A DNA stretch of 64,000 bases from an uncultured Planctomycetia bacterium (lineage in GTDB: Bacteria > Planctomycetota > GCA-002687715 > DRQF01): assembly GCA_964559135.1 (NCBI GenBank), contig CAZLGG010000004.1, positions 3,447-67,446 on the forward strand, read 5' to 3'. A program made the position numbers and the translations under genes. How positions within the stretch are numbered: position 1 is the first letter of the stretch; every line of letters starts with the position of its first letter. The notes under the pieces were generated by a model. That model had not been told where the DNA came from, searched no databases, and was given only the letters and a program-made list of their open reading frames with translations. Positions 1,436 through 54,567 of the stretch are shown one piece after another.

Positions 1436-2463
1436 ATCAGGAGAATCCCATGATTCCCATCTTGGTCATCGACGTCTGGCAAATCGTTCTCATCGTTCTT
1501 GCCATCGTGTTCTTCGGCCTCTTCATCTTCGTGGTGAAGTACCTCAACCTCTATATTCGTTCCCTGTTCTCCGGAGCAGGCATCGGCATCTTCGAACTGG
1601 TCGGAATGTCCTTGAGGAAGGTCAACGCCACCACGATCGTGAACTCCCGAATTCGCGCGGTCCAAGCCGGCATCGATATCGGCAGGCAGCAACTCGAGGC
1701 GCATTACCTGGCCGGAGGAAACGTCCGCAACGTCGTCTCCGCTCTCATTGCCTCCAACCGCGCCAAGATCGACCTGCAGTTCGATCAGGCCGCGGCCATC
1801 GACCTCGCCGGTCGCGACGTGCTGGACGCTGTCAAGACCTCGGTGAACCCTAAGGTGATCGACTGCCCCGACCCTGCCAAGGGCAAGCCGAAGATCTCCG
1901 CCGTGGCTGGAGACGGCATCGAACTCTTGGCGAAGGCGCGTGTGACCGTGCGCGCCAACATTCAACGGTTGGTCGGCGGTGCAACGGAAGCCACCATCGT
2001 CGCGCGCGTGCAGGAGGGCATCCTGACCACGATCGGTTCGTCCCGAGACCACAAGGTCGTTCTGGAAAACCCCGACATGATCTCTCAGCAGGTCCTCGCC
2101 AAGGGCCTGGACGCCGGCACCGCTTTCGAAATCCTCTCCATCGACATTGCCGACATCGACGTGGGTCAGAACATTCGCTCGAAACTCCAGATCGACCAGG
2201 CCGAGGCGGACAAGAAGGTCGCCCAGGCCAAGGCCGAGGAGCGAAAGGCCATGGCGATCGCTCGCGAGCATGAGATGCGAGCGGAAACCCAGGAGAATCG
2301 GGCCAAGGTCGTCGAGGCGGAGGCGCAAATCCCTCTCGCCATCGCCGATGCCTTTCACAAGGGCAACCTCGGCGTCATGGACTTCTACATGATGAAGAAC
2401 ATCAAGGCCGATACGAGCATGCGCCAGTCGATCTCCGGCGATAACCCGGACCACGAGGACTGA
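1432..2463 (+). CDS. floA: flotillin-like protein FloA (SPFH domain, UPF0365/YqfA family)
   Basis: 343 aa. Near-colinear match in memory to Bacillus YqfA/FloA: N-terminal TM, then [76 protein letters not shown]. Classic nfeD-floA operon arrangement. Confidence 0.9.
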
Positions 2464-2466
2464 TTC

Positions 2467-3069
2467 GTGTCCGAAGAACTGAAACTCCTCTTCTACCTGT
2501 TGATCTTCGGCCTTCCTCTCCTCGCGAACCTGCTCGAGAAGGCGAGGAAAAAGAAGCTCCAGGACCAGAGGCAAACGGGCCGAGGTGTCCGAGGCCAAGC
2601 TTCCAAGGCGCCCCCTCCTAGGGGGACGACCGGGCAACGACCGACTCTCGCCGAGTGGATCGAAGAATTGCGCAGACAGTCCGCGGAAGGCAGCGATCTC
2701 GCTCCAGCGCCGACGCGGCGGCCTCTTCACGAGGACGTCGCCGTCGAGGAGGACGTCAATCCCCCGGAGACCGTGCAGGAGACCGAAACACCCGCGCCTC
2801 CCCCCTTGGCGCCCGCCGAATCCGAGTTCGAGATTCAGCCGGAGGAGTCCCCCCTCTCGGATGCCACTCAACTGCTGGAGTCAGAGGATCTGACCGACGC
2901 GACCGCGCTTGCCTCCGCGGAGACGAGCCTCGTTTCGCCTTCGTCGAGGAGGCGGGGCCTCGTTTTGGACCGAAGTCAAATCCAACGTGCCATCGTCATG
3001 CGGGAGATTCTGGGCCCCCCGCGCGCGCTCGCGATCATGGGGCGCAAGGGCTGGTCCGATAAGATCTGA
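2467..3069 (+). CDS. hypothetical membrane-anchored Pro/Glu-rich protein (possible operon partner of floA, YqfB-position gene)
   Basis: 200 aa ORF with GTG start 3 nt after the floA stop. N-terminal hydrophobic helix (LLFYLLIFGLPLLANLL), then a low-complexity acidic Pro-rich region. No recognisable domain; convergent with the histidine kinase. Confidence 0.4.
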   Translation: MSEELKLLFYLLIFGLPLLANLLEKARKKKLQDQRQTGRGVRGQASKAPPPRGTTGQRPTLAEWIEELRRQSAEGSDLAPAPTRRPLHEDVAVEEDVNPPETVQETETPAPPPLAPAESEFEIQPEESPLSDATQLLESEDLTDATALASAETSLVSPSSRRRGLVLDRSQIQRAIVMREILGPPRALAIMGRKGWSDKI

Positions 3070-3092
3070 CCTCAGACCCACGAATGACCCGA

Positions 3093-5522
3093 CTATCGGA
3101 GGGCGTCCCTGTCTTCGTCGAGCGCCCGCGCCTCTCGAAGGGTCTTGGCTTCCCGGATGAGGATGCGGAGTCGCGAGAGGAGAGTACGTCGGGAGAACGG
3201 CTTGGGGAGAATGGCCCAAGGGACGTCCGCAGGCGCCACAAGGTCACCGTCGGCGGCGGCATAGCCCGAGATGAACAGAACAGGCAAACCCGGCGAGAAC
3301 TCGGCTGCGATCCGCGCAACCTCTTGACCTCCCCCGTCGGGCATCACCACATCCGTCACCACGACGTCGATCGAGGACGACGCGCCCTCCAAGGCGCTTC
3401 GAGCCTCCCCGACCGACGCCGCCGCATGCACCGTGATCCCGGATTCACACAGACTCGAGGCCAAAGCGTTCCGGACCGAGTCGTCGTCCTCGACCAAGAG
3501 CAATGAAATCGGCTCGTCGCTGTCGCTCTCGTCCCGTTTCCGGGGCCGATCCTCGTCCCTGGAATCGTCGTCGATCGTCGTTCCGGGAAACGCGACGCTG
3601 AAGACCGCCCCTTGCCCGGGCGCACTCTCCGCCGTGACCAGTCCGCCCGCTTGAGTGACGATCCCATGCACGGTGGAAAGTCCCAGCCCCGTGCCTCCAC
3701 CCGCGCCTTTGGTGGTGAAGAACGGCTCGAAGACCTTCTCGAGCGTTTCCTCGTCCATCCCCAAGCCTTCATCCTCCACCTCGAGCACGACCCACTCACC
3801 GGCGGGAAGGGTTTCGCATCCCAGACGACCCGGTTGCCGCAACACGAGATCGCGAAGTGTCAGGGTGATGGTCCCCCCATGCGGCATGGCGTCGCATGCG
3901 TTCACGACCAGGTTGAGGATGACCTGCTCGAATTGGGCGACGTCCACCTCGACCGCGAGGCGATTCGAGGCGTGGAAAACGAGCCGCACGGTCTCGTTGA
4001 TGATTCGCAAGAGCATGGGTTCCATGTCTCGGAGGATCGTGTCGGGCCGGACCCTTTGCGGCTCCACGAATTGTCGCCGGCTGATCGCCAGGAGCTGAGA
4101 CGTCAACCTCATGGCCCGTTCGCTCGAGTCTCTGATCGTCTCCACCATGGCTCGCGAAGGGGAGTCGTGGGGCAGCTCCTCGTCGAGGATGTCGGTGGCT
4201 CCGACGATGGCCGTGAGGACATTGTTGAAGTCGTGGGCGATGCCGCCCGCGAATCTGCCCACCATCTCCATCCTCTGGGCACGATGGAGCTGCCGTTCGA
4301 GCTCTCTTCTTTGGCCCACATCGGTGACCATGAGGAGAGTGCCCCCCAACTCCTCGTTCTCTTCGGGGATGGGAGTCGCCGCAATCCGGCACCAGACTTC
4401 CTCGCCGCTCGAACGAATCAGCTTCACCTCTCCGTCCGGAGGCAGGCTTTCCACCTCGATCTCGACGTCGCCGGGCAAGAAGTCTGCGAAGCGACGGTGC
4501 GCGAGCTCGTTCCCGCTGACGCCCAGTATTTCGGCGATGCGCTCGTTGGAGAAACGGGTTTCACCCTGAGGCCCCAGAACCCAGACACCGTCCTGGGTCA
4601 TGTCGAGAATTCGCTTGGACTCGGCCCGGCGACGCCGGACCTGCTCTCCTCGTCGCGACGCGGCGAAGGCCAGCGCGCTGATCGAAAGGGCCAGGATGAC
4701 GCCGGCGACGAGCAGACTCCGTGGAGGTGTGGTCTGGAGGCCCAACTCCGAATCGCTCGGCACGGTGATCGCAAGGGTCCATGGGTGACCGGCGAACGTG
4801 TAGGTTCGTTTCTCCGCGTCGCGCCACTCCTCATCGCCGAGCATCCGCCCGACCTCGAGAATCAGTCGACCATGCTGCGAGAATCGGTAGGAGAACTCCT
4901 TTTTGCCCAAGAGCGGGGGGGCGAGGCATTCCTCGAGAATCGGGCGAAGTCGAAAGACGCCATTGATGAACCCCTCGAGGCTCCCGTCCGCTTTCGACAC
5001 AGGCCGATAGGCCGTGAATCCCCATCCTCCCTGCGCCAACTCCAGAGCATGGGTGACGGCGACGCGGCGCTCGGCCCGGGCTCGACGCATCGCGGGACCA
5101 GCCAAAGGATGCGTTTTGAGGTCCAGATCCAGGGCGGCCTCGTTGCCCTCGACCGGACAGACGGTCCGAATCACGCCGGACGCGTCCACCCAATTGATCG
5201 CCTGAAACCCGGGGAACTCCGCTTGCATGGCCAACGAGAGTCGGCAGAAACGCTCTCGGCTACGGTCGGGAACGCTCTCCCAAAGGCGCGCGAGCTGGTC
5301 CAAGATGTGCATGCGCACATCGAAGAAATCCTTCAGGCGAAGGCAGTCCCTGGAGACCGTCGTCCCCAGGATCAGGTGGCGGCGGTCGCGGCGAACTCGG
5401 CTGTCGTAGATCCACGTGCCCCAGACCATGCCCAGCAAGAGGACAAGGAGCCCCGCAGCGACCCAACCGGACCGAGAATGGCGCTCCCTCATCCGTGTTC
5501 CCCTTCCGGGACACCGTAACAC
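3093..5522 (-). CDS. hybrid sensor histidine kinase/response regulator (N-terminal TM plus periplasmic sensor, PAS, HisKA, HATPase_c, C-terminal REC)
   Basis: 809 aa. H-box AGGIAHDFNNVLTAIVG. ATPase G-boxes (GGTITLTLRD, EDEGLGMDEETLEKVFEPFFTTK, GTGLGLSTVHGIV). Receiver domain LLLVEDDDSVRNALASSLCESGITV..VVTDVVMPDGGG..PVLFISGY. True start may be the Met at residue 11 (5492). Confidence 0.85.
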   Translation of the reverse strand: MLRCPGRGTRMRERHSRSGWVAAGLLVLLLGMVWGTWIYDSRVRRDRRHLILGTTVSRDCLRLKDFFDVRMHILDQLARLWESVPDRSRERFCRLSLAMQAEFPGFQAINWVDASGVIRTVCPVEGNEAALDLDLKTHPLAGPAMRRARAERRVAVTHALELAQGGWGFTAYRPVSKADGSLEGFINGVFRLRPILEECLAPPLLGKKEFSYRFSQHGRLILEVGRMLGDEEWRDAEKRTYTFAGHPWTLAITVPSDSELGLQTTPPRSLLVAGVILALSISALAFAASRRGEQVRRRRAESKRILDMTQDGVWVLGPQGETRFSNERIAEILGVSGNELAHRRFADFLPGDVEIEVESLPPDGEVKLIRSSGEEVWCRIAATPIPEENEELGGTLLMVTDVGQRRELERQLHRAQRMEMVGRFAGGIAHDFNNVLTAIVGATDILDEELPHDSPSRAMVETIRDSSERAMRLTSQLLAISRRQFVEPQRVRPDTILRDMEPMLLRIINETVRLVFHASNRLAVEVDVAQFEQVILNLVVNACDAMPHGGTITLTLRDLVLRQPGRLGCETLPAGEWVVLEVEDEGLGMDEETLEKVFEPFFTTKGAGGGTGLGLSTVHGIVTQAGGLVTAESAPGQGAVFSVAFPGTTIDDDSRDEDRPRKRDESDSDEPISLLLVEDDDSVRNALASSLCESGITVHAAASVGEARSALEGASSSIDVVVTDVVMPDGGGQEVARIAAEFSPGLPVLFISGYAAADGDLVAPADVPWAILPKPFSRRTLLSRLRILIREAKTLREARALDEDRDALR

Positions 5523-9465: not shown

Positions 9466-12177
9466 ATGAACGAAAAGAATCGGATGCTGTTCCTCGTCGA
9501 TGGGTCGGCCCTCGCCTATCGCTCCCATTTCGGCTTCATCCGCACACCGCTCATCAACTCCAAGGGAATGAACACGGGCGCCGTCATGGGCTACGCCCGA
9601 ACTCTGCTGCGACTGATTCGGGAAGAACACCCGACGCACATGGCCGTGTCCTTCGACACTCCGGAGCCGACGTTTCGACACGAGATGTATGCCCCGTACA
9701 AAGCCACACGGGAGAAGATGCCCGAGGAGATGGTGGGGCAGCTCCCGTGGATGAAGAAGATCACCGAAGCGTTGGCGATTCCGGTTCTCGAGTTGCCGGG
9801 ATGGGAAGCCGACGACGTCATTGGAACGCTGGCCAAGAAAGCGGAGGAGGAAGGCTTCGAAGTTCGCATCGTGACGGGCGACAAGGACTTCATGCAGATC
9901 GTCTCCCCCCGCGTCGTGCTCCACGATATCCTGAAGCAGGGAAGCGATCTCATCGTCGTCGACCCCGCGAAGGTCAAGGAGAAATTCGGAGTTCCTCCCG
10001 AAAAGGTCATCGATGTTCTGGCTCTCATGGGCGACAGTTCCGACAACGTCCCCGGCGTGAAGGGCGTGGGGCCGAAGACCGCACTGAAGCTCATCAACAC
10101 CTACGGGAGCTTGGAGGGCGTCCTCGAAGCCGCGCCGTCGATTCCCCAGAAAAAACTTCGGGAGAACCTCATCCACGACGCCGACATGGCGCGCCTCAGC
10201 AAAGATCTGGTCACGATCCGCCTGAACTGCCCCATCGGCGCCGATCCGAAAGATCTTCGGCTCGGTGAACCGAACCGGGAGGCGCTCGATGAGATCTTCA
10301 AGGAGCTGGAATTCCGTTCCCTCAGACAGGAAATCAGTGCGCCCACGAAGACGGTCGAGAAGCACTATTCGATCGTCGAAAACGAGGAGGAACTCCGGGC
10401 CCTGCTTTCCAGGTTGCGCAAAGCCGGCAACTTCGTCGTGGATACGGAGACGACGTCACTCAATCCGCTCGACGCCGAGCTCGTGGGCTTTTCCTTCAGC
10501 ATCAAGGAAGGAGAAGCCTTCTACGTTCCCCTCAACGCCGAACCGCCGGTTCTCCCCGACGACGGCATGGGAACTCACCCGATCGTGAAGGCCCTTGCGC
10601 CTCTGCTCGAGGACCCCTGCCTCGGCAAGGTCGCCCAGAACATCAAGTACGACGCGTCGGTCATTGCCACCGCGGGCGTTCAGATGCGCGGCATCTGGTT
10701 TGACACGATGATCGCCAGCTATCTGCTGGACCCCATGTCCCGTTCCCATGACCTCGACAGTCTCTCTCTGCGTCATTTCGACTACACGAAAGTGAAGACT
10801 TCGGAATTGATCGGTTCGGGAAAGGACCAGATCACCATGGATCAGGTTCCCGTGGACGTCGTGGGCGACTACGCGGCCGAGGACGCCGATTTCACCTTCC
10901 GGCTCCAACAACTCTTTGCACGTCGACTCGAAGAGGAAAACCTGAGAGACCTCTTCGACCGGATCGAGATGCCGCTCGTTCCGATCCTCGTCGCGATGGA
11001 ACGGGCCGGTATCCGCTTGGACGTGGGAGCCCTGAGGGCGTTGCAGTCCGAATTGGAGTCTCAACTGAGAGGGGTGGAACAGGAGATCTACACCTTGGCG
11101 GGCGAGACGTTCAAGATCAACTCGCCGAAACAGCTCTCCGAGATCCTCTTCGTGAAGCTGGAACTGCATAAGAAACTCGGTACCCGTGTCCGCAAGACGA
11201 AGACAGGCTTCTCGACGGGACAGGAAGTGCTGGAAGCCATGACGGGCCATCCCCTGCCCGCCAAGGTGCTGGAGTATCGATCCCTTTCGAAGCTGCTCTC
11301 GACCTACGTCATCGCTCTGCCGAAACTCGTTCGTCCCGCGACAGGTCGCATCCACACGAGCTACAACCAAGCCGTCGCGGCGACGGGACGTTTATCCAGC
11401 AGCGATCCCAACCTCCAGAACATCCCCATCCGATCTGAACTGGGAAGACGAGTTCGCTCCGCGTTCGTGGCGTCCGGCCCGGACTGGAAGCTCGTCTCCG
11501 CCGACTACTCGCAGGTGGAATTGCGTATCCTGGCTCACATCTGCAAGGAAGAGGCCATGGTGGAGGCCTTCGCCCGCGGGGCCGACATCCATCGGGAAAC
11601 GGCGGCCCGGGTCTTCGGGGTCCCGGCCGAGGCGGTCGACGCCGACATGCGATCCAAAGCGAAGAGCATCAACTTCGGGATCATCTACGGAATGGGACCC
11701 CATCGTCTGGCCCGAGAGACCGAGATGTCCGTGGAGCAGGCCAAGGAGTTCATCGACCGGTACTTCGAGAACTTTCCCAAGGTCAAGGAATACATCGAGT
11801 CCATGCATGCAAAGGCGCGTGAGGAGGGTTTCGTCACCACGCTCTTCGGTCGTAAGCGGCCCATCCCGGAGATCCTCTCACCCAACGGCGCCATCCGGTC
11901 CAACGCCGAGAACGTCGCGGTGAACACACCGATCCAGGGGACGGGGGCCGACATCATCAAACTGGCCATGATCGAGGTCGACCGTTGGATGCGGTCACGA
12001 GCATGCCGAGGCCTGATGATCCTGCAAGTGCATGACGAATTGATCTTCGACGTGCCCGATGAGGAGGTCCCCATGTTTCGGGAGAAGATTCCGGCCATCA
12101 TGGGCGGGGTGGTGCAACTCGACGTCCCGCTCGTCGTTGACGTCGGCGTGGGCCGGAATTGGACCGAAGCTCACTGA
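9466..12177 (+). CDS. polA: DNA polymerase I (5'-3' exonuclease, 3'-5' exonuclease and polymerase domains)
   Basis: 903 aa from MNEKNRMLFLVDGSALAYRSHF (5' nuclease), 3'-5' exo motif FVVDTETTSL, polymerase motifs RRVRSAFVASGPDWKLVSADYSQVELRILAH, INFGIIYGM, QVHDELIFDV. The long N-terminal extension of the track ORF (8335..9465) is antisense shadow. Confidence 0.95.
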   Translation: MNEKNRMLFLVDGSALAYRSHFGFIRTPLINSKGMNTGAVMGYARTLLRLIREEHPTHMAVSFDTPEPTFRHEMYAPYKATREKMPEEMVGQLPWMKKITEALAIPVLELPGWEADDVIGTLAKKAEEEGFEVRIVTGDKDFMQIVSPRVVLHDILKQGSDLIVVDPAKVKEKFGVPPEKVIDVLALMGDSSDNVPGVKGVGPKTALKLINTYGSLEGVLEAAPSIPQKKLRENLIHDADMARLSKDLVTIRLNCPIGADPKDLRLGEPNREALDEIFKELEFRSLRQEISAPTKTVEKHYSIVENEEELRALLSRLRKAGNFVVDTETTSLNPLDAELVGFSFSIKEGEAFYVPLNAEPPVLPDDGMGTHPIVKALAPLLEDPCLGKVAQNIKYDASVIATAGVQMRGIWFDTMIASYLLDPMSRSHDLDSLSLRHFDYTKVKTSELIGSGKDQITMDQVPVDVVGDYAAEDADFTFRLQQLFARRLEEENLRDLFDRIEMPLVPILVAMERAGIRLDVGALRALQSELESQLRGVEQEIYTLAGETFKINSPKQLSEILFVKLELHKKLGTRVRKTKTGFSTGQEVLEAMTGHPLPAKVLEYRSLSKLLSTYVIALPKLVRPATGRIHTSYNQAVAATGRLSSSDPNLQNIPIRSELGRRVRSAFVASGPDWKLVSADYSQVELRILAHICKEEAMVEAFARGADIHRETAARVFGVPAEAVDADMRSKAKSINFGIIYGMGPHRLARETEMSVEQAKEFIDRYFENFPKVKEYIESMHAKAREEGFVTTLFGRKRPIPEILSPNGAIRSNAENVAVNTPIQGTGADIIKLAMIEVDRWMRSRACRGLMILQVHDELIFDVPDEEVPMFREKIPAIMGGVVQLDVPLVVDVGVGRNWTEAH

Positions 12178-21428: not shown

Positions 21429-21457
21429 TTGGCGAATCCGAGACGGCCGGGTAAGAT
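21429..21457 (+). promoter_or_regulatory. putative sigma70-type promoter (-35 TTGGCG, 17-nt spacer, -10 TAAGAT) for the Kelch lipoprotein gene
   Basis: Located in the 250-bp divergent spacer, about 70 nt upstream of the start codon at 21525. Confidence 0.3.
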
Positions 21458-21524
21458 CACCTCCGAGATCGGAATGATGTCAGCCGCAACTGCGCGCCAG
21501 GTTTACGGAATAGGGAAACTGCTG

Positions 21525-23534
21525 ATGATGGCGAAGAAGGTGACGAAGGGCATGGCCCTTCTCCTGATCGGCACCGCAATGATGTTGGGAATTCCGGGCT
21601 GCAGCGGTGGAGGGTTCACCCCCCCCAACGCGATCGCTGCCTTGGCTGCAACTATCAACCAGGTGCTGACCCTGACCAACCCCACGACGGGCGAAACCAT
21701 CCTGTGCATCGATTACACGGTGACCGGCGATCCAGGGCAGACTTTCGGCCTGGAATTCAAGTTCTTCGTCGACAGCAACGGCAATGGCATGCCGGATGCC
21801 GGTGAAGCCGAGTTCTCCATGACCGAGGTCAGCACGGCCCTCGAGGCCCTCTTCGGCGTGATGTCGGAGAACGGCTCCAATCTGAACCTCTCCAGCGGTT
21901 CGGCCACGGGCACGTTCTACTGGCAGGCCGGCGCGGATCTCGGATTCGTGGGATCCACGGTTTGCGTAGAAATCACTCCCACGGGAGGATTGAGCGGGCA
22001 GACCGTCCAAACCGGCATTCAATGCAATGTTGTCTACGACGGCGGTAGCCCGCCGGTCACCGTGAATGGCGGCAATATCGGTCCCGGCGGCGCCCAGCCC
22101 GGTCGTGCCCGTCACACGGCCCATGCCGTGAACACCATGCCCAACCCCAGCCTCCTGGCGGTGGGCGGCGTGGATGGCGGCGCCAATGCCGTGAACACCT
22201 TGGATCGCTTCGATCTGGATCTGGGCAACCGGATGCAGGTCTTGGCATTCAGCCAAGCCGGACAGGACACGCGGGTCGGGCACGCTTCGGCGTTCTTTTT
22301 CAACAGCGGCGGCAGCGTGAGCATCTTGGTCACGGGCGGCACCAACACGGGCGCCGTGACCCTGGGCACGACGCCCACCGCCCTCAACACCGCGGACATC
22401 TACCAGTTCAGCCCCACGGAATCCGTGACGGCGACTGCCTCCACCATGCAGATGGACCGGGAACGCCATGCGGCCTGCTGGCTTCCGAACAACACGGTGC
22501 TCATCACCGGTGGCGTCGGCACCAATGCCGGCACGTCCACGTCGGCCGAGATCTATGATCCGGTGAGCGACAGTTTCAGTTTGGTGGCGAGCCTTCCGGG
22601 CGCACGGGCTGACCACACCTGCACCCTGCTCCCCAACGGCATGGTCCTCCTCGCGGGCGGGCGGGATCCCTCGAATCCCACAACACCGCAGCCGGCCTAT
22701 CTCTACGACTTCCGCACCAACACGTGGACGAGTACGGGAACGAACATCGATCGTTACCAGCACACGGCCACTCTCTTGGTGAACGGCGTCTGCGCCCTCA
22801 TCGGCGGCCGCAAGGTCTCCGACGATTCCGTCGTCGCCACGGCCGACTTCTACCGGAGTTTCCCGGAGAACGGTGGGGGCATCCCCGCCGGCTTCACATC
22901 CACCGCGTCGGTCGCGCTGTCCTCGGGACGCACCGAGCATGCGGCGGCGCTCTTGGGGAACACCCAGATCCTGGTCTCCGGCGGCTTCGACAACGGCGCC
23001 CCGGGGAGTGCGCTCAGCAGCAGCGAACTCTTCATCCCCACGACCTTCACGAGCCTGACCATCGGCACGTTCAGCCCGGTGACCGCGCTCACGACGGCTC
23101 GTGCGCGGCACACGTCGACCACGCTGCCCGGGGGCACCAACGTCCTTCTCGGAGGCGTCACGGGCACCATGGGAATGGAATCAGCCCTCAACACCATCGA
23201 GGTCTACCAATTCAACAACTCGGCCCCGTCGGTGAGCAACATCGTCATCTCGGCGCCCAGTGGACCCGCTGCGGCCGGGATCACGTTCGACCTCGCGGAT
23301 GCCGAAGGGGACCGGGCCTTCGTGATCGTCCGCTTCTCGACGGACGGCGGCCAGACCTATCAGTTCGCAACCCTCACGGACTACGCGAAAACCGTCAATC
23401 TGGCTCCCGGCAGCCACATGTTGGACTGGAATGCCGCGGCGGATGGCCTGAGCGCGGGTCAAGCCGTTACCCTCGAGATCATCCCTGTCGGAGGGACGAT
23501 GGGAGCCCCCACCACGGTGAACTTCAATCTCTGA
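21525..23534 (+). CDS. Kelch-repeat (beta-propeller) lipoprotein with C-terminal beta-sandwich domain
   Basis: Lipoprotein signal MMAKKVTKGMALLLIGTAMMLGIPGC. Six Kelch-like blades, each ending in a hydrophobic-x-GG motif (HAACWLPNNTVLITGG, HTCTLLPNGMVLLAGG, HTATLLVNGVCALIGG, HAAALLGNTQILVSGG, HTSTTLPGGTNVLLGG). Gly/Thr/Asn-rich N-terminal domain. The ORF is open from 21429; the lipobox-proximal start was chosen. Confidence 0.7.
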   Translation: MMAKKVTKGMALLLIGTAMMLGIPGCSGGGFTPPNAIAALAATINQVLTLTNPTTGETILCIDYTVTGDPGQTFGLEFKFFVDSNGNGMPDAGEAEFSMTEVSTALEALFGVMSENGSNLNLSSGSATGTFYWQAGADLGFVGSTVCVEITPTGGLSGQTVQTGIQCNVVYDGGSPPVTVNGGNIGPGGAQPGRARHTAHAVNTMPNPSLLAVGGVDGGANAVNTLDRFDLDLGNRMQVLAFSQAGQDTRVGHASAFFFNSGGSVSILVTGGTNTGAVTLGTTPTALNTADIYQFSPTESVTATASTMQMDRERHAACWLPNNTVLITGGVGTNAGTSTSAEIYDPVSDSFSLVASLPGARADHTCTLLPNGMVLLAGGRDPSNPTTPQPAYLYDFRTNTWTSTGTNIDRYQHTATLLVNGVCALIGGRKVSDDSVVATADFYRSFPENGGGIPAGFTSTASVALSSGRTEHAAALLGNTQILVSGGFDNGAPGSALSSSELFIPTTFTSLTIGTFSPVTALTTARARHTSTTLPGGTNVLLGGVTGTMGMESALNTIEVYQFNNSAPSVSNIVISAPSGPAAAGITFDLADAEGDRAFVIVRFSTDGGQTYQFATLTDYAKTVNLAPGSHMLDWNAAADGLSAGQAVTLEIIPVGGTMGAPTTVNFNL

Positions 23535-23561
23535 CCCCGGTTGAATCCGAGACAAACGCGA

Positions 23562-23594
23562 GCCGCCGGCGCTTCAGCGTCGGCGGCTTTTTTT
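23562..23594 (+). terminator. Rho-independent terminator after the Kelch lipoprotein gene
   Basis: GCCGCCGGCGCT-TC-AGCGTCGGCGGC: 12-bp GC-rich stem with one G-U pair, followed by TTTTTTT, 28 nt after the stop codon. Confidence 0.7.
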
Positions 23595-23636
23595 CATGCT
23601 CGTCCTCAGGCGCACTATGGGAGATAAGAAGGGGGG

Positions 23637-23728
23637 CTCTCACGGAAGCGCCGAGGCGCAAAGACGCATCGGCCGGGCGACTCGCGATCGGCCCCTTCCT
23701 TCTCTGCGGCTCCGTGCCTCCGTGAGAG
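23637..23728. repeat. REP-like imperfect palindromic repeat element, copy 1
   Basis: Left arm CTCTCACGGAAGCGCCGAGGCGCAAAGACGC. Right arm TCTCTGCGGCTCCGTGCCTCCGTGAGAG is roughly its reverse complement. A second copy, 80-85% similar, lies at 54391..54567. Both are in spacers between convergent genes. Confidence 0.5.
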
Positions 23729-23890
23729 ACAAACCTGAAGGTCGATAAAGGCCCGAACCTGGACGCATCATCGCACAACAAGGGCGCTTCGAGGACGTGG
23801 AGGGAAGAGCTTGCTCTTCATGCCGGCTCGAGGGGCGTCGATCACACGACGGGAAGGCGTCGTGCTGAACAGGCTCGCCCCTTCGAGAGG

Positions 23891-25222
23891 TCAATAGCCG
23901 ATCTTACCCCGGAGGAACGAAGCGACGGCGTCGATAGCAACCCGTTCCTGTGCCATGGAATCCCGATCGCGGATCGTCACCGTGCCGTTCTCCTTGGAGT
24001 CGTGATCCACGGTGATGCAGTAGGGGGTGCCGATCTCGTCTTGTCGCCGGTAGCGGCGACCGATGGCCCCGCTTTGGTCGTAGAAGACGTTGAACTGTCT
24101 TCTTAGATCCTCTTCCAGCTTGTGGGCGATGTCGGGAAGGCCGTCTTTTTTCACCAATGGGAAGATGCCCGCCTTGATGGGGGCGAGCTTGGGATGCAGA
24201 TGGAGAACCGTTCGAGAATCGCCATCCTCCAACGCCTCCTCATCGTAGCCGTCCACGAGGAAGACGAGGACTGCGCGATCCACTCCGAGGGCGGGCTCGA
24301 TCACGTAGGGCCAATAGCGTTCCTTGGTCTGATCGTCGAAAAAGCGCAGATCCCGGCCCGTGGCCTCCTGGTGACGCTTCAGATCGAAATCGGTCCGGTT
24401 GGCGACGCCTTCCAATTCCTTCCAGCCGAAGGGAAACTGGTACTCGAGATCCGCGCAGGCCTTCGAGTAGTGGGCCAGTTCGTTCCCTTCATGCTCGCGA
24501 AAGCGCATGCGGTCGGGGTCCACGCCCAGGTCGAGAAACCATTGCAGACGTTCCTTGCACCAGTACTCATACCAGGTGTCCGCCTCTGCCGGGGGGACGA
24601 AGAATTCCATCTCCATCTGCTCGAATTCCCGGCTCCGGAAGATGAAGTTCTCCGTCACGATCTCGTTGCGGAATGACTTCCCCTGCTGCGCAATCCCGAA
24701 GGGGGGCTTGACGCGCGAGGTCTCGAGGACGTTCTTGAAGTTGACGAAAATGCCCTGAGCCGTCTCCGGACGGAGGTACACGGCGGACTCCTGGCTTTCC
24801 ACCGGCCCCATGTTCGTCTTGAACATCAGATTGAACTGCCGGGGTTCGGTCAGTTCGCCGTCGCATTCCCCCGGCCGCTTCGACGGTTTTTCGGGACAGA
24901 CCTGGGTGTCCAGCGTGTCCGCGCGGAATCGTGCCTTGCATTTCTTGCAATCCACGAGGGGATCGTTGAATCCGGAAACGTGGCCACTGGTCTCCCAGAC
25001 CTTCGGGTGCATGAGGATCGATGTGTCCAGTCCGACGACGTCGGAGCGGCCCCGCACCAGGACGTTCCACCATGCATCCTTGACGTTCCGCTTCAACTCC
25101 ACGCCCAAGGGGCCATAGTCCCAGCAGGACTTGAGACCTCCATAAATCTCGCTGGAGGGGAAGACGAATCCTCGGCGCTTGCAGAGCGACACGAGCTTTT
25201 CCATGGTATCGGCGGGTTTCAA
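23891..25222 (-). CDS. glyQS: glycine--tRNA ligase, dimeric alpha2 type
   Basis: 443 aa. MEKLVSLCKRRGFVFPSSEIYGGL.., class II motifs FRNEIVTENFIFRSREFEQMEMEFF and anticodon-binding C-terminus. True start may be the Met at residue 7 (25204). Confidence 0.9.
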   Translation of the reverse strand: MKPADTMEKLVSLCKRRGFVFPSSEIYGGLKSCWDYGPLGVELKRNVKDAWWNVLVRGRSDVVGLDTSILMHPKVWETSGHVSGFNDPLVDCKKCKARFRADTLDTQVCPEKPSKRPGECDGELTEPRQFNLMFKTNMGPVESQESAVYLRPETAQGIFVNFKNVLETSRVKPPFGIAQQGKSFRNEIVTENFIFRSREFEQMEMEFFVPPAEADTWYEYWCKERLQWFLDLGVDPDRMRFREHEGNELAHYSKACADLEYQFPFGWKELEGVANRTDFDLKRHQEATGRDLRFFDDQTKERYWPYVIEPALGVDRAVLVFLVDGYDEEALEDGDSRTVLHLHPKLAPIKAGIFPLVKKDGLPDIAHKLEEDLRRQFNVFYDQSGAIGRRYRRQDEIGTPYCITVDHDSKENGTVTIRDRDSMAQERVAIDAVASFLRGKIGY

Positions 25223-25330: not shown

Positions 25331-26095
25331 TTAGCGAACTTCCTGTCCGGCACGCTGCAAGTGGAAACGGCCTGCCGCCTCGACATGGGACCGGAAGAGC
25401 GCCAGATTGAAATCCAGATTCGTGAAGGTGAGTTCCGGGTGCCATTGGACGGCCCGAGCGAAAGTGTGTTTCTCACTCGCCATCGCCTCGGCCACTCCGT
25501 CGGTCGCCTTGGCGACGATGGTGAATCCGGGCGCCGGTTCCTTCACGCACTGGTGATGGTAGCTGTTCACCCGCACCTTGGTCTCCCCCACCAGATGATG
25601 CAGCCAGCTATCGTCCATGATTTCGATGCTGTGGGAGGGATACTCCTCGGTGAGCTTTTGGAAGTGGAGCAGCGTCTCGTTCCCCATCTGGGACTCGATA
25701 TCCTGCACGAGCGTTCCTCCCGCCGCCACATTGAGGACCTGCATTCCCCGACAGATTCCGAAGGTGGGCATATCTCGGGAAAGGGCTTCCCGGGTCAGGA
25801 TCATCTCGGTGACGTCGCGGAGGGGATTGATCTGCTCGATGCGGCGGTGCGGTTCTTCCCCGTACCAAGACGGATCGACGTCGAACCCTCCGGTGAGCAG
25901 AAGGCCGTCACAGACATCCAGGAGCTGAATCAGGACCTCCGCGTTCTGGGTCAGCGGCAAGATCATAGGCACCCCGCCTGCGGCCTCGACGGCCTGAACG
26001 TAGTGCATGGAGACGCCGAAACGGGGGTAGGGACGGTCGTTGTGGGTGAAGTAGATCTTCCGGGATGACACGCCGATGACTGGCCGTCGACTCAT
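25331..26095 (-). CDS. class I glutamine amidotransferase-like / peptidase C26 family hydrolase (gamma-glutamyl hydrolase-type)
   Basis: 254 aa. Catalytic triad context GICRGMQVLNVAAGGTL (Cys nucleophile) and ..HHQCV..WHPE.. (His/Glu). PuuD/C26-like fold. Confidence 0.8.
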   Translation of the reverse strand: MSRRPVIGVSSRKIYFTHNDRPYPRFGVSMHYVQAVEAAGGVPMILPLTQNAEVLIQLLDVCDGLLLTGGFDVDPSWYGEEPHRRIEQINPLRDVTEMILTREALSRDMPTFGICRGMQVLNVAAGGTLVQDIESQMGNETLLHFQKLTEEYPSHSIEIMDDSWLHHLVGETKVRVNSYHHQCVKEPAPGFTIVAKATDGVAEAMASEKHTFARAVQWHPELTFTNLDFNLALFRSHVEAAGRFHLQRAGQEVR

Positions 26096-37251: not shown

Positions 37252-37596
37252 GGTTTCCGGGGTCGTTCCGCTCTGACGGGAGTCTGTCGGCGCCCCTGAG
37301 GGGGGCAAGGGCGCGTTTTAGCAGAAACCCTCCGCCGCTTCAACGCGCCACGCCATCGCCTAATACGCGATCGGACAAGGGCTTAGGGGACGCCCGACTC
37401 GCTTGGATCACTCCGTCGCGTACCCGACATCCTCCCATCGCAAGAAAACCTCAAAGAGCAACATCACTCCGCAGTGAGTAGAATGTTCCCCATTCCATCA
37501 GACTCTCGAGATATCCCGGGCGCTTTGCACCACGGTTCACTGCGCGGATTCACGTTCCACGCCACGCGCGCCCACAGACCGAAAAGGATTCGCACC

Positions 37597-38742
37597 ATGA
37601 AGAGATTCACTTTGTTTCTGACGGCCTTGTATCTTGTCCTCGGCGCGGCGACGGCACAGCAACTCGAACCCAACAGCCCGGGCGGCTCGCTGCGAAGCAA
37701 CGGTGCCGACCCGACACCGACCGTCCCTTTCCTCGTCGATCCGAATAGCTCCATGGACTTCGAAGTTGGGGGCAACGCCGGTTCACCCTATGGCTTGGTG
37801 GCCGGCCAACTGGCGACTCAATCCATCACGTCCCCCCTTCTCAACGGCCAGTTCTTCGATCTCGACGTCGCGACGGCCACCCTCATCGGCGACGGCATCA
37901 GCGGCGGGAGCACCGGCCTCCCGACGAATCTCTTCGCCCTCAACGGGACCGGCGGCGCAAACTGGTCGATTCCAGCCAACGCGGGGCTTCTCGGTCAGCA
38001 GCTCGCTTTTCAAGCCGTCGTCAGCGATCCAGGACAACCACCTCTCAATCTCAACATCACCGCGGCCGTCGAATTCGATTTCCAAAGCGTCTCCATTCTC
38101 ATCGGCGACGACACCTTGACGGGCATCACGCTCCTCCAGCCGTATGCCTTCTATGGGCAGACCTACACCCAGTGCTGGATCTCCACGAACGGTTGGATCA
38201 AGTTCGGCGGCGCTCCGACCCACAGCGACCTCGCCGAGAGCACTCCCAACTTCCTGAGCGGCAACATCGGAAACTCCGGAGCCGGAACCGGCCCCATCGT
38301 GGCGGCCCTATGGGAAGACCTTGACATGGGGAACGGGAATCCCGGCCAACAGGTGATCATCGCCGAGTCCACGCCGGGCTTCCTCACCGTCACGTGGCAA
38401 AATGGCGATTATTGGCCGTCCACGCCCTTCGGCACGATCTCGGCCACGATCGACGTGACGGCCGGAGTCCCGCAGATCACTCTCAATTTCATGGGCTACA
38501 CAGCGGCGGCGCCCCCCACCGAGGGGCTCGTCGGCATTTCCGACGGCGGCACGGCGATGGCGGTCGGCAACGAGGTCGACATCGTTCAGATGGGAGCCGT
38601 CGTCCCGACAGGTGGCATCAACCCGGCGGAGACCATCTTCCAGAACTTCGGCACGGGACCATTCAGCGAGTCGGTCGATCTCGCGGGAACCGTGGTCAAC
38701 TTCATCGACGCCGGCGGCGCCGGTCAATTCACCATGTTCTGA
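37597..38742 (+). CDS. secreted protein of uncharacterised family, paralog 1 (Gly/Asn/Thr-rich, C-terminal Phe)
   Basis: 381 aa from MKRFTLFLTALYLVLGAATAQQ (signal peptide). About 70% identical to the gene immediately downstream. Conserved blocks NGQFFD, QCWISTNGWIKFGGAP, LWEDLDMGNGNPGQQVII, TVTWQNGDYWPSTPFGT, VDIVQMGAVVPTGG. Ends ..GAGQFTMF. Confidence 0.7.
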   Translation: MKRFTLFLTALYLVLGAATAQQLEPNSPGGSLRSNGADPTPTVPFLVDPNSSMDFEVGGNAGSPYGLVAGQLATQSITSPLLNGQFFDLDVATATLIGDGISGGSTGLPTNLFALNGTGGANWSIPANAGLLGQQLAFQAVVSDPGQPPLNLNITAAVEFDFQSVSILIGDDTLTGITLLQPYAFYGQTYTQCWISTNGWIKFGGAPTHSDLAESTPNFLSGNIGNSGAGTGPIVAALWEDLDMGNGNPGQQVIIAESTPGFLTVTWQNGDYWPSTPFGTISATIDVTAGVPQITLNFMGYTAAAPPTEGLVGISDGGTAMAVGNEVDIVQMGAVVPTGGINPAETIFQNFGTGPFSESVDLAGTVVNFIDAGGAGQFTMF

Positions 38743-38808: not shown

Positions 38809-38964
38809 GTCGGGAACGCGGTCCCCGCGACATCTTGGCCTGGAAAATGGGGGGAGTATATGCCCACCTCAAACGTTGAGCAGCCGGTGGCGGCACCGTC
38901 CGGCCGTCTTTCCAATGACTCCTGATGCCGTGCGGCCGCCAGAGCTCAAGAAAGGAGATGAGCC

Positions 38965-40110
38965 ATGCAGAGATTCATGCTTTTTCTGATCGCTTTGTGC
39001 CTGATCCTCGCTCCGGTGACCGCACAGCAACTGGAGCCGAACACCCCCGGAGGCTTCCTCCAGGTCAACGGCGTCGATCCCACGCCCGGAACACCCTTCC
39101 TTGTCACACCCAACGGCACGATGAACTTCGAGGTCGGCGGCAACGCGAATGCGGGGTATTCCCTCGTCGTGGGGCAATTGGCCACGACATCGATCACGGA
39201 CCCTCTGCTCAACGGCCAGTTTTTCGACATCGACCTGAACACGGCCGCACTCGTCGGTGACGGCATCGGAGGCACCAACACGGGCCTGCCGGCCAACCTG
39301 TTCTTCCTGAACTCGAACGGCGTGAGCCCATGGAGCATTCCCACCAATCCGGGACTCCTCGGCCAGAGACTCGCCTTCCAGGCTGTCGTCTTCGATCCGG
39401 CCCAGCCCCCCTTGAATCTCAACATCACGGCCGCGGCCGAATTCGACGTCCAGAACGTCACCGTTCTCACCGGCGACGACAGCTTTGTGTCTTTCAGCTT
39501 GCTTCAGCCCTACCCCCTCTATGGCCAGACCTACAACCAGTGCTTCATCTCGACGAACGGCTGGATCAAGTTCGGCGGCGCTCCGTTTTTCAGTGACTTG
39601 AGCGAAAGCTCCCAGGACTTCCTGAGTGGGAACGTCGGAGGAGCCGGCGCTGGCAGCGGTCCCGTCGTCGCGCCTCTTTGGGAAGACCTGGACATGGGGA
39701 ACGGGAATCCCGGTCAGCAGGTGATCATCAACGAATCCGTTCCCGGTCTCTTGACCGTCACCTGGCAGAACGGCGACTACTTTCCTTCGACTCCCTTCGG
39801 CACGGTCATCGCGACGGTCGATGTGACGGCGGGCATTCCGCAGATCACCCTCGACTACTTGGGCTACAACGCCATGACGCCTCCCACGGAAGGCATCGTG
39901 GGCGTCTCGGACGGCGGCGTCGCCATGGCGGTCGCCAATGAGGTCGATCTCGTTCAGATGGGAGCCGTCGTGCCGACCGGTGGCTTCAACCCGGCGGAGA
40001 CCATTTTCCAGAACTTCGGCACGGGGACCTTCCCCGAAGCCGTGGATCTGGCGGGCACGGTCCTCAATTTCGTCGACGCGGCAGGCACGGGTCAGTTCGC
40101 CCTCTTCTGA
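38965..40110 (+). CDS. secreted protein of uncharacterised family, paralog 2
   Basis: 381 aa from MQRFMLFLIALCLILAPVTAQQ, with strong SD AAAGGAG 6 nt upstream. Colinear with paralog 1 (same conserved blocks). Ends ..GTGQFALF. Confidence 0.75.
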   Translation: MQRFMLFLIALCLILAPVTAQQLEPNTPGGFLQVNGVDPTPGTPFLVTPNGTMNFEVGGNANAGYSLVVGQLATTSITDPLLNGQFFDIDLNTAALVGDGIGGTNTGLPANLFFLNSNGVSPWSIPTNPGLLGQRLAFQAVVFDPAQPPLNLNITAAAEFDVQNVTVLTGDDSFVSFSLLQPYPLYGQTYNQCFISTNGWIKFGGAPFFSDLSESSQDFLSGNVGGAGAGSGPVVAPLWEDLDMGNGNPGQQVIINESVPGLLTVTWQNGDYFPSTPFGTVIATVDVTAGIPQITLDYLGYNAMTPPTEGIVGVSDGGVAMAVANEVDLVQMGAVVPTGGFNPAETIFQNFGTGTFPEAVDLAGTVLNFVDAAGTGQFALF

Positions 40111-53770: not shown

Positions 53771-54121
53771 ATGGGGATCGCCAGACGGAAACGCATTCGT
53801 TCGGGACGCGACTTTCGAGAGATCTACGCAGAAGGCCGCGTCGTGCGGAACCGCCAACTGGTGATCTACTTCAGGCCGTCACCGGCGGCCCACTCCCGGG
53901 TCGGACTCTCCGTGAGCCGACGACACGGAAACGCCGTGCGACGGAACCGAATCAAGCGCATCTTGCGAGAGGTGTTTCGCAATGCGACGGATCGCATCCC
54001 GGGGCCGTTGGACGTCATCCTCATTCCGCGCCGGGGGCCGGATGCGGAGATCTACGCCGCCAACCGAGATGCGTTCATCCACCTCATGCGCAAGGTCGCC
54101 AAGACGACGGGGGTGAAATGA
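53771..54121 (+). CDS. rnpA: ribonuclease P protein component
   Basis: 116 aa. RLRSGRDF-like N-terminus (RIRSGRDFREIY), central basic RNR motif region (NAVRRNRIKRILRE). Confidence 0.85.
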   Translation: MGIARRKRIRSGRDFREIYAEGRVVRNRQLVIYFRPSPAAHSRVGLSVSRRHGNAVRRNRIKRILREVFRNATDRIPGPLDVILIPRRGPDAEIYAANRDAFIHLMRKVAKTTGVK

Positions 54122-54375
54122 AGGTGGAATCCGTCAAGGGGCACTCCCTCCTCGGGCAGTGCGTCGCGGCGACGATGCTGCTGCCTCTCGGACTCTATCG
54201 TCTGACCCTCTCCCATATCATGCCGCCCTGTTGCCGGTTCCAGCCCTCTTGCAGCGCCTATGCCTGGGAAGCCATCCGCCGTCACGGGCCTTGGAAGGGT
54301 GGCTGGCTGACAGCCAAGCGCTTGGCTCGTTGCCAGCCGTGGGGCCCCTGCGGCGACGACCCCGTCCCCGACTGA
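54118..54375 (+). CDS. yidD: membrane protein insertion efficiency factor YidD
   Basis: 85 aa. Conserved CRFQPSCSAYAWEAIRRHGPWKGGWLTAKRLARCQPWGPCGDDPVP. Overlaps the rnpA stop. Confidence 0.88.
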   Translation: MKVESVKGHSLLGQCVAATMLLPLGLYRLTLSHIMPPCCRFQPSCSAYAWEAIRRHGPWKGGWLTAKRLARCQPWGPCGDDPVPD

Positions 54376-54390
54376 CGCCGCAAGAGGAAT

Positions 54391-54567
54391 CTCACAAAGA
54401 CGCATGGGGATGGAAGGGCGCGCGACGCAGGCTCCGCGATGTCTTTCTCCGCAGCTCCGTGCCTCTGTGAGAGATCAATCGGAACGTCAAGGACGCTCCA
54501 AGGGCTCGTCGTCCCGAATCCAGGGAGAAGGACATCTCACGGAGACGCAGAGGCACGAAGACGCGTC
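54391..54567. repeat. REP-like imperfect palindromic repeat element, copy 2 (core 54391..54473 plus extra left-arm copy 54535..54567)
   Basis: TCTCCGCAGCTCCGTGCCTCTGTGAGAG (54446..54473) matches the copy 1 right arm at about 85%. TCTCACGGAGACGCAGAGGCACGAAGACGC (54535..54567) matches the copy 1 left arm at about 80%. Lies in the yidD / PpiD-like convergent spacer. Confidence 0.5.

Follow-up and report, generated by a model that had tools for sequence, protein, structure and literature searches.

Two intergenic spacers in a 64-kb stretch of DNA from an uncultured Planctomycetia bacterium (positions 3,447 to 67,446 of contig CAZLGG010000004.1; this whole stretch is called 'the window' below) each harbor a copy of a palindromic repeat whose inverted arms contain tandem 8-nt units. 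These two copies are probably gene-less members of a widespread inverted-repeat selfish element, and resemble the miniature inverted-repeat transposable elements (MITEs) of bacteria. In other genomes, arms of the same type enclose a single small gene that encodes a GxxExxY protein, which has the PD-(D/E)XK nuclease fold. A bolder proposal, which we rate as possible but somewhat doubtful, is that this arm-GxxExxY-arm unit might itself be an undescribed, minimal autonomous mobile element of approximately 440 bp, in which a 127-residue, Cas4-like nuclease would recognize the tandem 8-bp units of its own arms and bring about copying that leaves no target-site duplication; the hairpins in the window, and those in genomes labeled as belonging to at least seven phyla, would then be its non-autonomous progeny.

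Five arms of one repeat in two spacers

The window contains, in total, five arms of one repeat, all confined to the two spacers. Each arm begins with a 'cap', TCTCAC, that is followed by two to four tandem 8-nt units of the form NC[A/G]C[A/G][A/G]AG; this internal periodicity was absent from the initial annotation of the DNA, which had described the repeat from its sequence. The individual parts are as follows (bit scores are those of a 28-nt weight matrix that was trained solely on arms of other genomes).

23638-23729: copy 1, an intact hairpin of 92 nt
23638-23667, plus strand: left arm of copy 1, TCTCAC followed by three 8-nt units, GGAAGCGC CGAGGCGC AAAGACGC; 22.0 bits
23668-23700, no strand: interior (loop) of copy 1, 33 nt, with a small GC hairpin (from folding) and non-coding (blastx against GxxExxY proteins gave nothing)
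23701-23729, minus strand: right arm of copy 1, TCTCTGCGGCTCCGTGCCTCCGTGAGAGA, reverse complement TCTCTCACGGAGGCACGGAGCCGCAGAGA; 36.1 bits
54390-54474: copy 2, a decayed hairpin
54390-54403, plus strand: shortened left arm of copy 2, TCTCAC AAAGACGC, identified from the sequence; 13.2 bits
54404-54445, no strand: interior of copy 2, which aligns in part with the interior of copy 1 (within a repeat pair of 73% identity over 73 nt)
54446-54474, minus strand: right arm of copy 2, TCTCCGCAGCTCCGTGCCTCTGTGAGAGA, identical to the right arm of copy 1 at 26 of 29 positions; 35.0 bits
54535-54564, plus strand: solo left-type arm, complete, TCTCAC GGAGACGC AGAGGCAC GAAGACGC; 26.6 bits

The initial annotation had proposed a palindromic repeat in two copies at these positions, and its resemblance between the two loci lies far above chance. 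When applied to the 64 kb, the weight matrix reaches 8 bits or more at exactly five sites, every one of them an arm listed above, while a shuffled window yields 0.12 sites at 16 bits or more; likewise, a degenerate 29-mer derived from the right arm matches the window twice, as compared with no match in 100 shuffles. An independent repeat search pairs positions 23671-23743 with 54416-54488. The repeat is therefore real and is not an artifact of GC content, and chance is excluded.

The predicted ability of the element to fold into a hairpin was borne out for copy 1, on either RNA strand (-54.1 kcal/mol, z -3.0, for the plus strand; -58.0 kcal/mol, z -3.3, for the minus strand) and as DNA (-28.4 kcal/mol, z -3.7, a long imperfect hairpin), but not for copy 2, the hairpin of which is degenerate and folds as DNA no better than shuffled sequence (z +0.1). 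The anatomy of copy 2 also differs from its first description, according to which it carried an 'extra partial left arm'. The partial arm is instead the positional partner of the right arm, and corresponds to the left arm of copy 1 less exactly 16 nt (that is, two 8-nt units), whereas the complete left-type arm is a separate, solo arm 60 nt downstream, for which a weight-matrix scan of the window found no partner arm farther downstream. The outer ends of copy 2 and of the solo arm face each other, as in the tandem arrays of other genomes, and back-to-back pairs of this kind, with less than 100 nt between the arms, are frequent across the family (33 cases).

Both copies have in common their interior sequence, an inner left-arm segment, AAAGACGCAT, and a near-identical right arm. 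For this reason, both would descend from one asymmetric, gene-less master, with copy 2 subsequently losing two arm units, presumably by slippage. A further sign of repetition comes from the host: among the loci that were compared (labeled by L-numbers, such as L061), the Logan contig L003 of the host ends at its position 2159, equivalent to approximately position 23700 of the window and 2 nt past the inner end of the right arm of copy 1, as is expected where an assembly graph branches at a sequence that is repeated elsewhere in the sample.

Further copies are found well beyond the window. Among the matches listed, more than 119 stretches of GTDB genomes contain an 18-mer from the arms, TCTCACRGAGGCACGGAG, where approximately 35 chance matches would be predicted for the whole collection under uniform composition. 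The carriers, again among the matches listed, are labeled as Planctomycetota, Verrucomicrobiota (including Lentisphaerae and Kiritimatiellae), Spirochaetota, Gemmatimonadota, Sumerlaeota, Desulfobacterota, Bacteroidota and Pseudomonadota, and a looser arm pattern also matches IMG/VR contigs. Most matches form one half of a 60-150-nt hairpin, consisting of TCTCAC(RGAG NCAC)n, a variable interior and the reverse complement; the interior is shorter than 200 nt in 98 of 116 adjacent plus-then-minus arm pairs. The third 8-nt unit retains the consensus nCACrGAG even though it falls outside of the search pattern, and the 8-nt periodicity is thus a genuine property of the family. Arms are scarce within long open reading frames (ORFs), which contain 35% of arms as compared with 83% of background bases, and they form regular tandem arrays at four loci (L065, L101, L104 and L146). 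As judged from these matches, the family is cross-phylum and not lineage-specific.

The expectation that such a family had gone uncatalogued for this lineage holds within the searches made. No Rfam family is present in the window at gathering threshold. Within positions 23530-23895 there are only weak matches, mostly on the adjacent terminator of the Kelch gene (best 18.3 bits, 23540-23599), and the two that reach into the element score below 15 bits, against gathering scores of 40. For the L146 array Rfam returned only chance-level microRNA matches, and no paper in the literature searched contains 15-mers of the arms. The family is, on the other hand, not restricted to the lineage.

Several loci show additional peculiarities. 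The L146 array (1532-3287) is dense, with at least six hairpins at a spacing of approximately 200-235 nt, and there one GxxExxY gene lies between two complete hairpins, unlike the usual enclosure within one. In L008 (450-562), L015 (196-308), L029 (4637-4749) and related IMG/VR contigs, a GC-rich palindrome, CCTGCCCGC...GGCAGGCGGG, is nested in one arm, and represents a different small palindromic element inserted into the hairpin. Genes for ATPases with AAA_14 and DUF4143 domains lie directly downstream of arms or hairpins in L087 (3034-4305), L095 (5695-7056) and L154 (3281-4531); these were considered as cargo and rejected, since they recur beside arms and not between them.

Arms around GxxExxY genes and gene-less derivatives

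The association with a protein emerged when the ORFs of the 119 genome loci were clustered: a protein of approximately 127 residues recurs in seven of the 119 loci, from different phyla. In four loci that were selected by the arm pattern (L061, L075, L084 and L121), a plus arm, an ORF of 126-130 codons and a minus arm follow one another, with 385-412 nt between the arms. With 139 bits on TIGR04256 and 140 on PF13366 (PDDEXK_3), the enclosed ORF lies above the curated cut-offs; its PD-(D/E)XK motif is intact, and it belongs to these families. In order to avoid circularity, a second sample was taken from the protein side, comprising 80 metagenome loci with a gene for a relative of this protein. 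Within 120 nt of the gene, arms that have the enclosing orientation number 21 upstream and 32 downstream, where approximately 1.1 per side would be expected from the density of arms elsewhere in the same loci; both arms are present in fifteen of the 80.

The same result is obtained without the matrix. In 54 of 73 loci, sequences on the two sides of the gene match in inverted orientation at 14 or more of 16 bases, and all such matches are of one unit type, with the variants CGCAAAG, CGCAGAG, CACGGAG and CACAAAG; the unit variants found around GxxExxY genes include those of the left arms in the window. The distance between arm and gene is 0-13 nt at the start codon and 5-24 nt at the stop codon, so that the whole unit measures approximately 440 bp and cannot accommodate its own promoter. 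L255 adds another independent case: the GxxExxY gene P0124 is situated there between arms of 39.8 and 37.7 bits, and 20 nt of the left arm, TCTCTCACGGAGGCACGGAG, agree without mismatch with the reverse-complemented right arm of copy 1. The elements of L061 and L255 are 90% identical, and their surrounding genomic contexts are unrelated. The occurrence of P0124 on 93 contigs was considered as a sign of a multi-copy gene and rejected, as it reflects one locus that recurs in many samples.

The GxxExxY proteins encoded between the arms are 126-130 residues in length and have a Cas4-like PD-(D/E)XK fold. More than 8000 relatives fall below an E-value of 1e-10 among the matches listed, many of them on contigs shorter than 2 kb; very short contigs carrying such genes are typical of repeats that break assemblies. 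In the 80 metagenome copies, the residues D67, E77 and K79 (the D...ExK motif) are each at least 95% conserved and there are no internal stop codons, a pattern which suggests that the nuclease is probably active. A sequence search of solved structures with a GxxExxY profile found nothing significant, and PADLOC and PHROGs gave weak Cas4-like matches only. In a survey of PD-(D/E)XK proteins, PF13366 is listed with function unknown and with multiple transfers (PMC3424549). No earlier description of a link between the arms and GxxExxY proteins was found in the literature searched, nor anything that ties the names GxxExxY, PDDEXK_3, TIGR04256 or PF13366 to repeats.

The gene-bearing and gene-less forms are connected by intermediates, which come from other genomes and not from the host. 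The 176-nt interior of the hairpin in L056 still encodes GxxExxY residues 72-124 (blastx E-value 4e-22), and the 77-nt interior in L090 encodes residues 4-22 (E-value 4.5e-6); in L222, a 'mini' hairpin of 161 nt has its interior and flanks in common with a full element that lies 500 nt away. Some short hairpins can therefore be demonstrated, from such coding and flanking remnants, to be internal-deletion derivatives of the gene-bearing form. Non-coding interiors, when they match at all, match only within one genome and on different contigs, as in L099 and L131 (98% over 194 nt) and in four further sets (L087/L115/L152, L091/L133, L048/L117 and L098/L108). Such matches across the contigs of one genome imply that gene-less copies are themselves copied.

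With respect to what is conserved in the arms, agreement at variable unit positions is no greater between the two arms of one element than between arms of unrelated loci (0.49 versus 0.50, and 0.40 versus 0.43), and A.C and G.T mismatches between arms are equally frequent (151 and 137). The conserved feature is thus the sequence of each arm and not the pairing between arms, and there is no strand-specific RNA signal; conservation of this kind is what would be expected of a protein that reads repeated 8-bp sites in DNA. In the 116 unique elements, the palindrome extends outward to (T)TC-TCTCAC...GTGAGA-GA. Arms also turn over much faster than the neighboring DNA, since L036 (457-474) and L041 (457-610), with flanks that are 98% identical, carry respectively a solo arm of the CTTTGCG type and a 113-nt hairpin plus a solo arm of the CTCTGTG type.

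Two routes of copying may be envisaged. In one, the GxxExxY nuclease would act in trans on arms in double-stranded form, at their repeated 8-bp units; in the other, copies would spread through recombination or gene conversion between arms. No host function need be assumed for the element, and an effect on the 3' ends of the glyQS or PpiD-like transcripts would be incidental.

Origin of the copies in the window

The two spacers of the window can be compared with those of close relatives. Three relatives with 98% identical glycyl-tRNA synthetase (GlyRS; L167-L169) and one with 96% (L163) retain the glyQS-Kelch gene pair and the terminator of the Kelch gene, with a spacer of 98-122 nt, as compared with 356 nt in the window, and with no arm in it. 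At the second locus, the yidD-PpiD spacer measures 48 nt in L171 (PpiD-like protein 89% identical) and 240 nt in the window; it too lacks an arm, and no arm occurs anywhere in seven 21-kb loci of relatives. The absence of the element from both orthologous spacers favors, by parsimony, a gain in the lineage of the window, and the element was most likely gained, on this comparison, after the split from those relatives.

More distant relatives (GlyRS 82-83% identical) are also armless, and the same spot holds other, unrelated palindromic DNA. In L164 and L165 (82%; 11336-11487), the orthologous spacer contains a perfect 37-bp inverted repeat, TACGGAGTCAGACTTAATTCTCCCGTTTTTTTAGGCC / T / reverse complement; in L166 (83%; 11336-12169), it is an 834-nt spacer made of GC-rich tandem modules of approximately 300 nt each. 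The spacer orthologous to positions 23535-23890 of the window gathers different palindromic DNA in each lineage.

The suggestion in the initial annotation that the repeat could be a miniature inverted-repeat element is thus in agreement with its absence from the spacers of relatives, the dispersal of whole copies in other genomes and the existence of deletion derivatives. Among the features of MITEs, inverted repeats around a short non-coding interior are present (22 and 36 bits around 33 nt in copy 1), as are a longer gene-bearing element with the same ends and deletion intermediates (in other genomes), insertion polymorphism and multiple copies per genome (two loci in the window); target-site duplication is absent.

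Several observations weigh against this interpretation, however. For 116 unique elements, direct repeats of 2 to 8 nt at offsets of 0-3 occur at the rate of shuffled sequence, so that no target-site duplication is apparent. Similarity within a genome often runs 25-120 nt past the arms (in two pairs for approximately 42-45 nt, on one side only), and the window copies are alike in alignment for approximately 16 nt past the right arm; the arms may accordingly be subterminal, or some copies may have arisen through segmental duplication. Neither the 64-kb window nor approximately 150 kb from close relatives contains a GxxExxY gene, which makes the partner enzyme in the host a putative one. The choice between gain and loss rests on parsimony over four lineages, and the spacers of the relatives are too diverged to place insertion boundaries. 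At locus 1 the extra DNA amounts to approximately 255 nt, of which the hairpin makes up just 92 nt; the other 160 nt are unique, with no degenerate arms detected by the weight matrix and no second copy among the sequences compared. A clean pair of filled and empty sites was not found, and the sole polymorphic pair with retained flanks (L036/L041) has different arm variants on both sides. Finally, the taxonomic labels of metagenome-assembled genomes (MAGs) may contain binning errors, and the mobility of the element is putative.

Four other explanations were weighed. The first, which we consider unlikely, holds that full arm-GxxExxY-arm units once stood at each locus of the window and decayed in place, leaving the hairpins as local relics. 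In its favor, partly deleted units are known elsewhere (L056 and L090), and 160 nt of extra unique DNA lie beside the hairpin at locus 1. The common interior and asymmetric arms of the window copies point instead to the copying of a gene-less master, blastx recovers no GxxExxY coding trace at either locus, and other genomes contain dispersed gene-less copies whose interiors are nearly identical.

The second explanation invokes a structure that is selected by the host, such as a terminator, a stabilizer of mRNA 3' ends or an insulator between convergent transcription units, and bears upon the genes that adjoin the two spacers:

21429-23534, plus strand: Kelch-repeat protein gene (Pfam)
23560-23589: canonical terminator of the Kelch gene, followed by a T-run, between the Kelch stop codon and the element
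23891-25222, minus strand: glyQS (Pfam)
53771-54375, plus strand: rnpA-yidD (Pfam)
54616-56820, minus strand: SurA_N_3/PpiD-like gene (Pfam)

Both copies do lie between convergent genes, as had been noted from the start (Kelch against glyQS, and yidD against the PpiD-like gene, by Pfam assignment); copy 1 forms a stable hairpin on either strand, and it would sit in a 3' untranslated region when read from the glyQS side. Such a role is nevertheless rather improbable. The element is missing from the spacers of the relatives with 96-98% identical GlyRS, which retain the Kelch terminator; copy 2 folds no better than shuffled sequence; and the arms do not covary, which argues that their pairing is not conserved. 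The role of terminator that had been suggested is not supported, in view of the separate, conserved Kelch terminator, the only terminator-like site at these spacers, and of the lack of a T tail and of any terminator-like site at either element. Across the family as a whole, a crude test shows no bias toward convergent spacers (22%, as compared with a background of 21%), a weak result, as the greedy gene caller mis-called the PpiD-like region.

The third explanation, which the initial annotation had raised through its comparison with repetitive extragenic palindromic (REP) sequences, bacterial interspersed mosaic elements (BIMEs) and REP-associated tyrosine transposases (RAYTs), would treat the copies as REP doublets that form hairpins (REPINs) and are copied by a single-copy Y1 (HUH) transposase encoded elsewhere. 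Such systems likewise produce extragenic hairpins that lack target-site duplication and differ between close relatives, and a gene within inverted repeats, accompanied by many gene-less doublets, is formally like a RAYT gene flanked by REPs. A REP is defined, however, as an imperfect palindrome of 20-40 nt with a GTAG or CGTC head tetranucleotide (PMC3733652), whereas the arms described here are purine-rich tandem 8-mers of the GGAG type with no internal complement, pair only with each other, and end, in the 116 unique elements, in (T)TC-TCTCAC and GTGAGA-GA with neither head. Searches by tblastn and phmmer with a single query, the RayT protein of Escherichia coli, detected no relative, either in the window or across 1.6 Mb of loci that carry the element (best E-value 0.05); one borderline match, an ORF in L122, was rejected because it is not Y1_Tnp by Pfam. 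The gene that actually lies between the arms encodes a PD-(D/E)XK protein of the GxxExxY family and not a Y1 transposase, and membership in a REP-RAYT system is very improbable.

The last explanation, that the hairpins are attC sites of an integron with GxxExxY genes as cassettes, can be virtually dismissed: it accounts for imperfect palindromes, 60-150 nt long, in which the ends are conserved and the centers vary, and for arrays in which the hairpins share one orientation and a small gene is sometimes interposed (L146), but the ends CTCTCAC and GTGAGAG differ from RYYYAAC and GTTRRRY by two mismatches per core, including the GTT crossover triplet, the gene mostly lies inside one inverted pair and not between complete hairpins, and no integrase-like family recurs among the ORFs of the 119 loci.

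Some features of the window stand apart from these questions. A dedicated search found no tRNA or tmRNA in it. Three short-read assemblies of the host, independent of one another (L001, L002 and L003), share a start point near position 25858, inside a Peptidase_C26/GATase gene (25331-26095). This common start lies approximately 636 nt upstream of glyQS and suggests that the site is a repeat or differs between strains. Two stretches, 37583-38268 and 38951-39636, are repeated with a period of 1368 nt and 71-74% identity, and are probably adjacent paralogous genes.

Significance and comparison with known systems

If the MITE-like interpretation is right, the two spacers harbor recently acquired selfish DNA, and not regulators of glyQS, the Kelch gene, yidD or the PpiD-like gene. 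The repeat would also explain a common source of spurious 'hypothetical proteins' and of assembly breaks in MAGs of the Planctomycetota, Verrucomicrobiota and related groups. A conserved, periodic inverted repeat around GxxExxY genes, together with a scatter of gene-less copies, would give this protein family a role that can be tested, namely as the enzyme that serves a selfish element, and would provide, beside REPIN-RAYT, a second, independent system in which to study the persistence of short hairpin repeats in bacterial genomes. Were the bolder proposal true, the unit would be functionally analogous to the pairing of REPINs with RAYTs, with an enzyme of another fold.

Bacterial MITEs derived from insertion sequences, of which Correia/NEMIS, RUP and Nezha are examples, are alike in their terminal inverted repeats, short non-coding interior, deletion derivatives, intergenic location and insertion polymorphism. 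They differ in that the elements described here lack target-site duplication, that the copied unit often exceeds the arms, and that the parent is an element of approximately 440 bp whose sole gene encodes a nuclease of 126-130 residues and not a DDE transposase. The ORF-bearing intervening sequences of 23S rRNA and the 'four helix bundle / S23p' small-ORF insertions also have a single ORF of approximately 120 codons within long inverted repeats that can form a stem, and are scattered in many copies through genomes of the same phyla; their protein belongs to another family, and there is no rRNA context here.

A free-standing, small nuclease gene that apparently spreads together with its own flanking recognition DNA, as the arrangement of arms and gene would suggest, also invites comparison with Cas4 and other minimal PD-(D/E)XK nucleases, a fold that includes the homing endonuclease I-Ssp6803I. 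Cas4 carries a four-cysteine motif for an Fe-S cluster, whereas in the GxxExxY protein, of approximately 127 residues, no such motif is evident (by sequence inspection, with no formal test). In contrast to Cas4 and to homing endonucleases, the GxxExxY gene lies neither beside CRISPR-Cas genes nor within an intron. The attC sites of integrons also form imperfect palindromes of about this length, conserved at the ends, variable in the center and sometimes in arrays; their core sequences are unlike those of the arms, and here no integrase is seen and the gene lies inside one inverted pair.

The REP/REPIN-RAYT systems (Nunvar 2010; Bertels and Rainey 2011, PMC3116915; Di Nocera 2013, PMC3733652) resemble the present elements in being short, multi-copy extragenic hairpins that lack target-site duplication, that differ in presence between close relatives, and whose associated enzyme gene is itself located between inverted repeats. 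They differ in the architecture of the repeat, which is individually palindromic, 20-40 nt in length and headed by GTAG or CGTC, as opposed to tandem 8-nt units with no such head; in the enzyme, a Y1 HUH transposase as opposed to a multi-copy PD-(D/E)XK gene of the GxxExxY family; and in distribution, as the sequence of a REP is usually specific to a species or genus, whereas the arm sequence described here is conserved across phyla.

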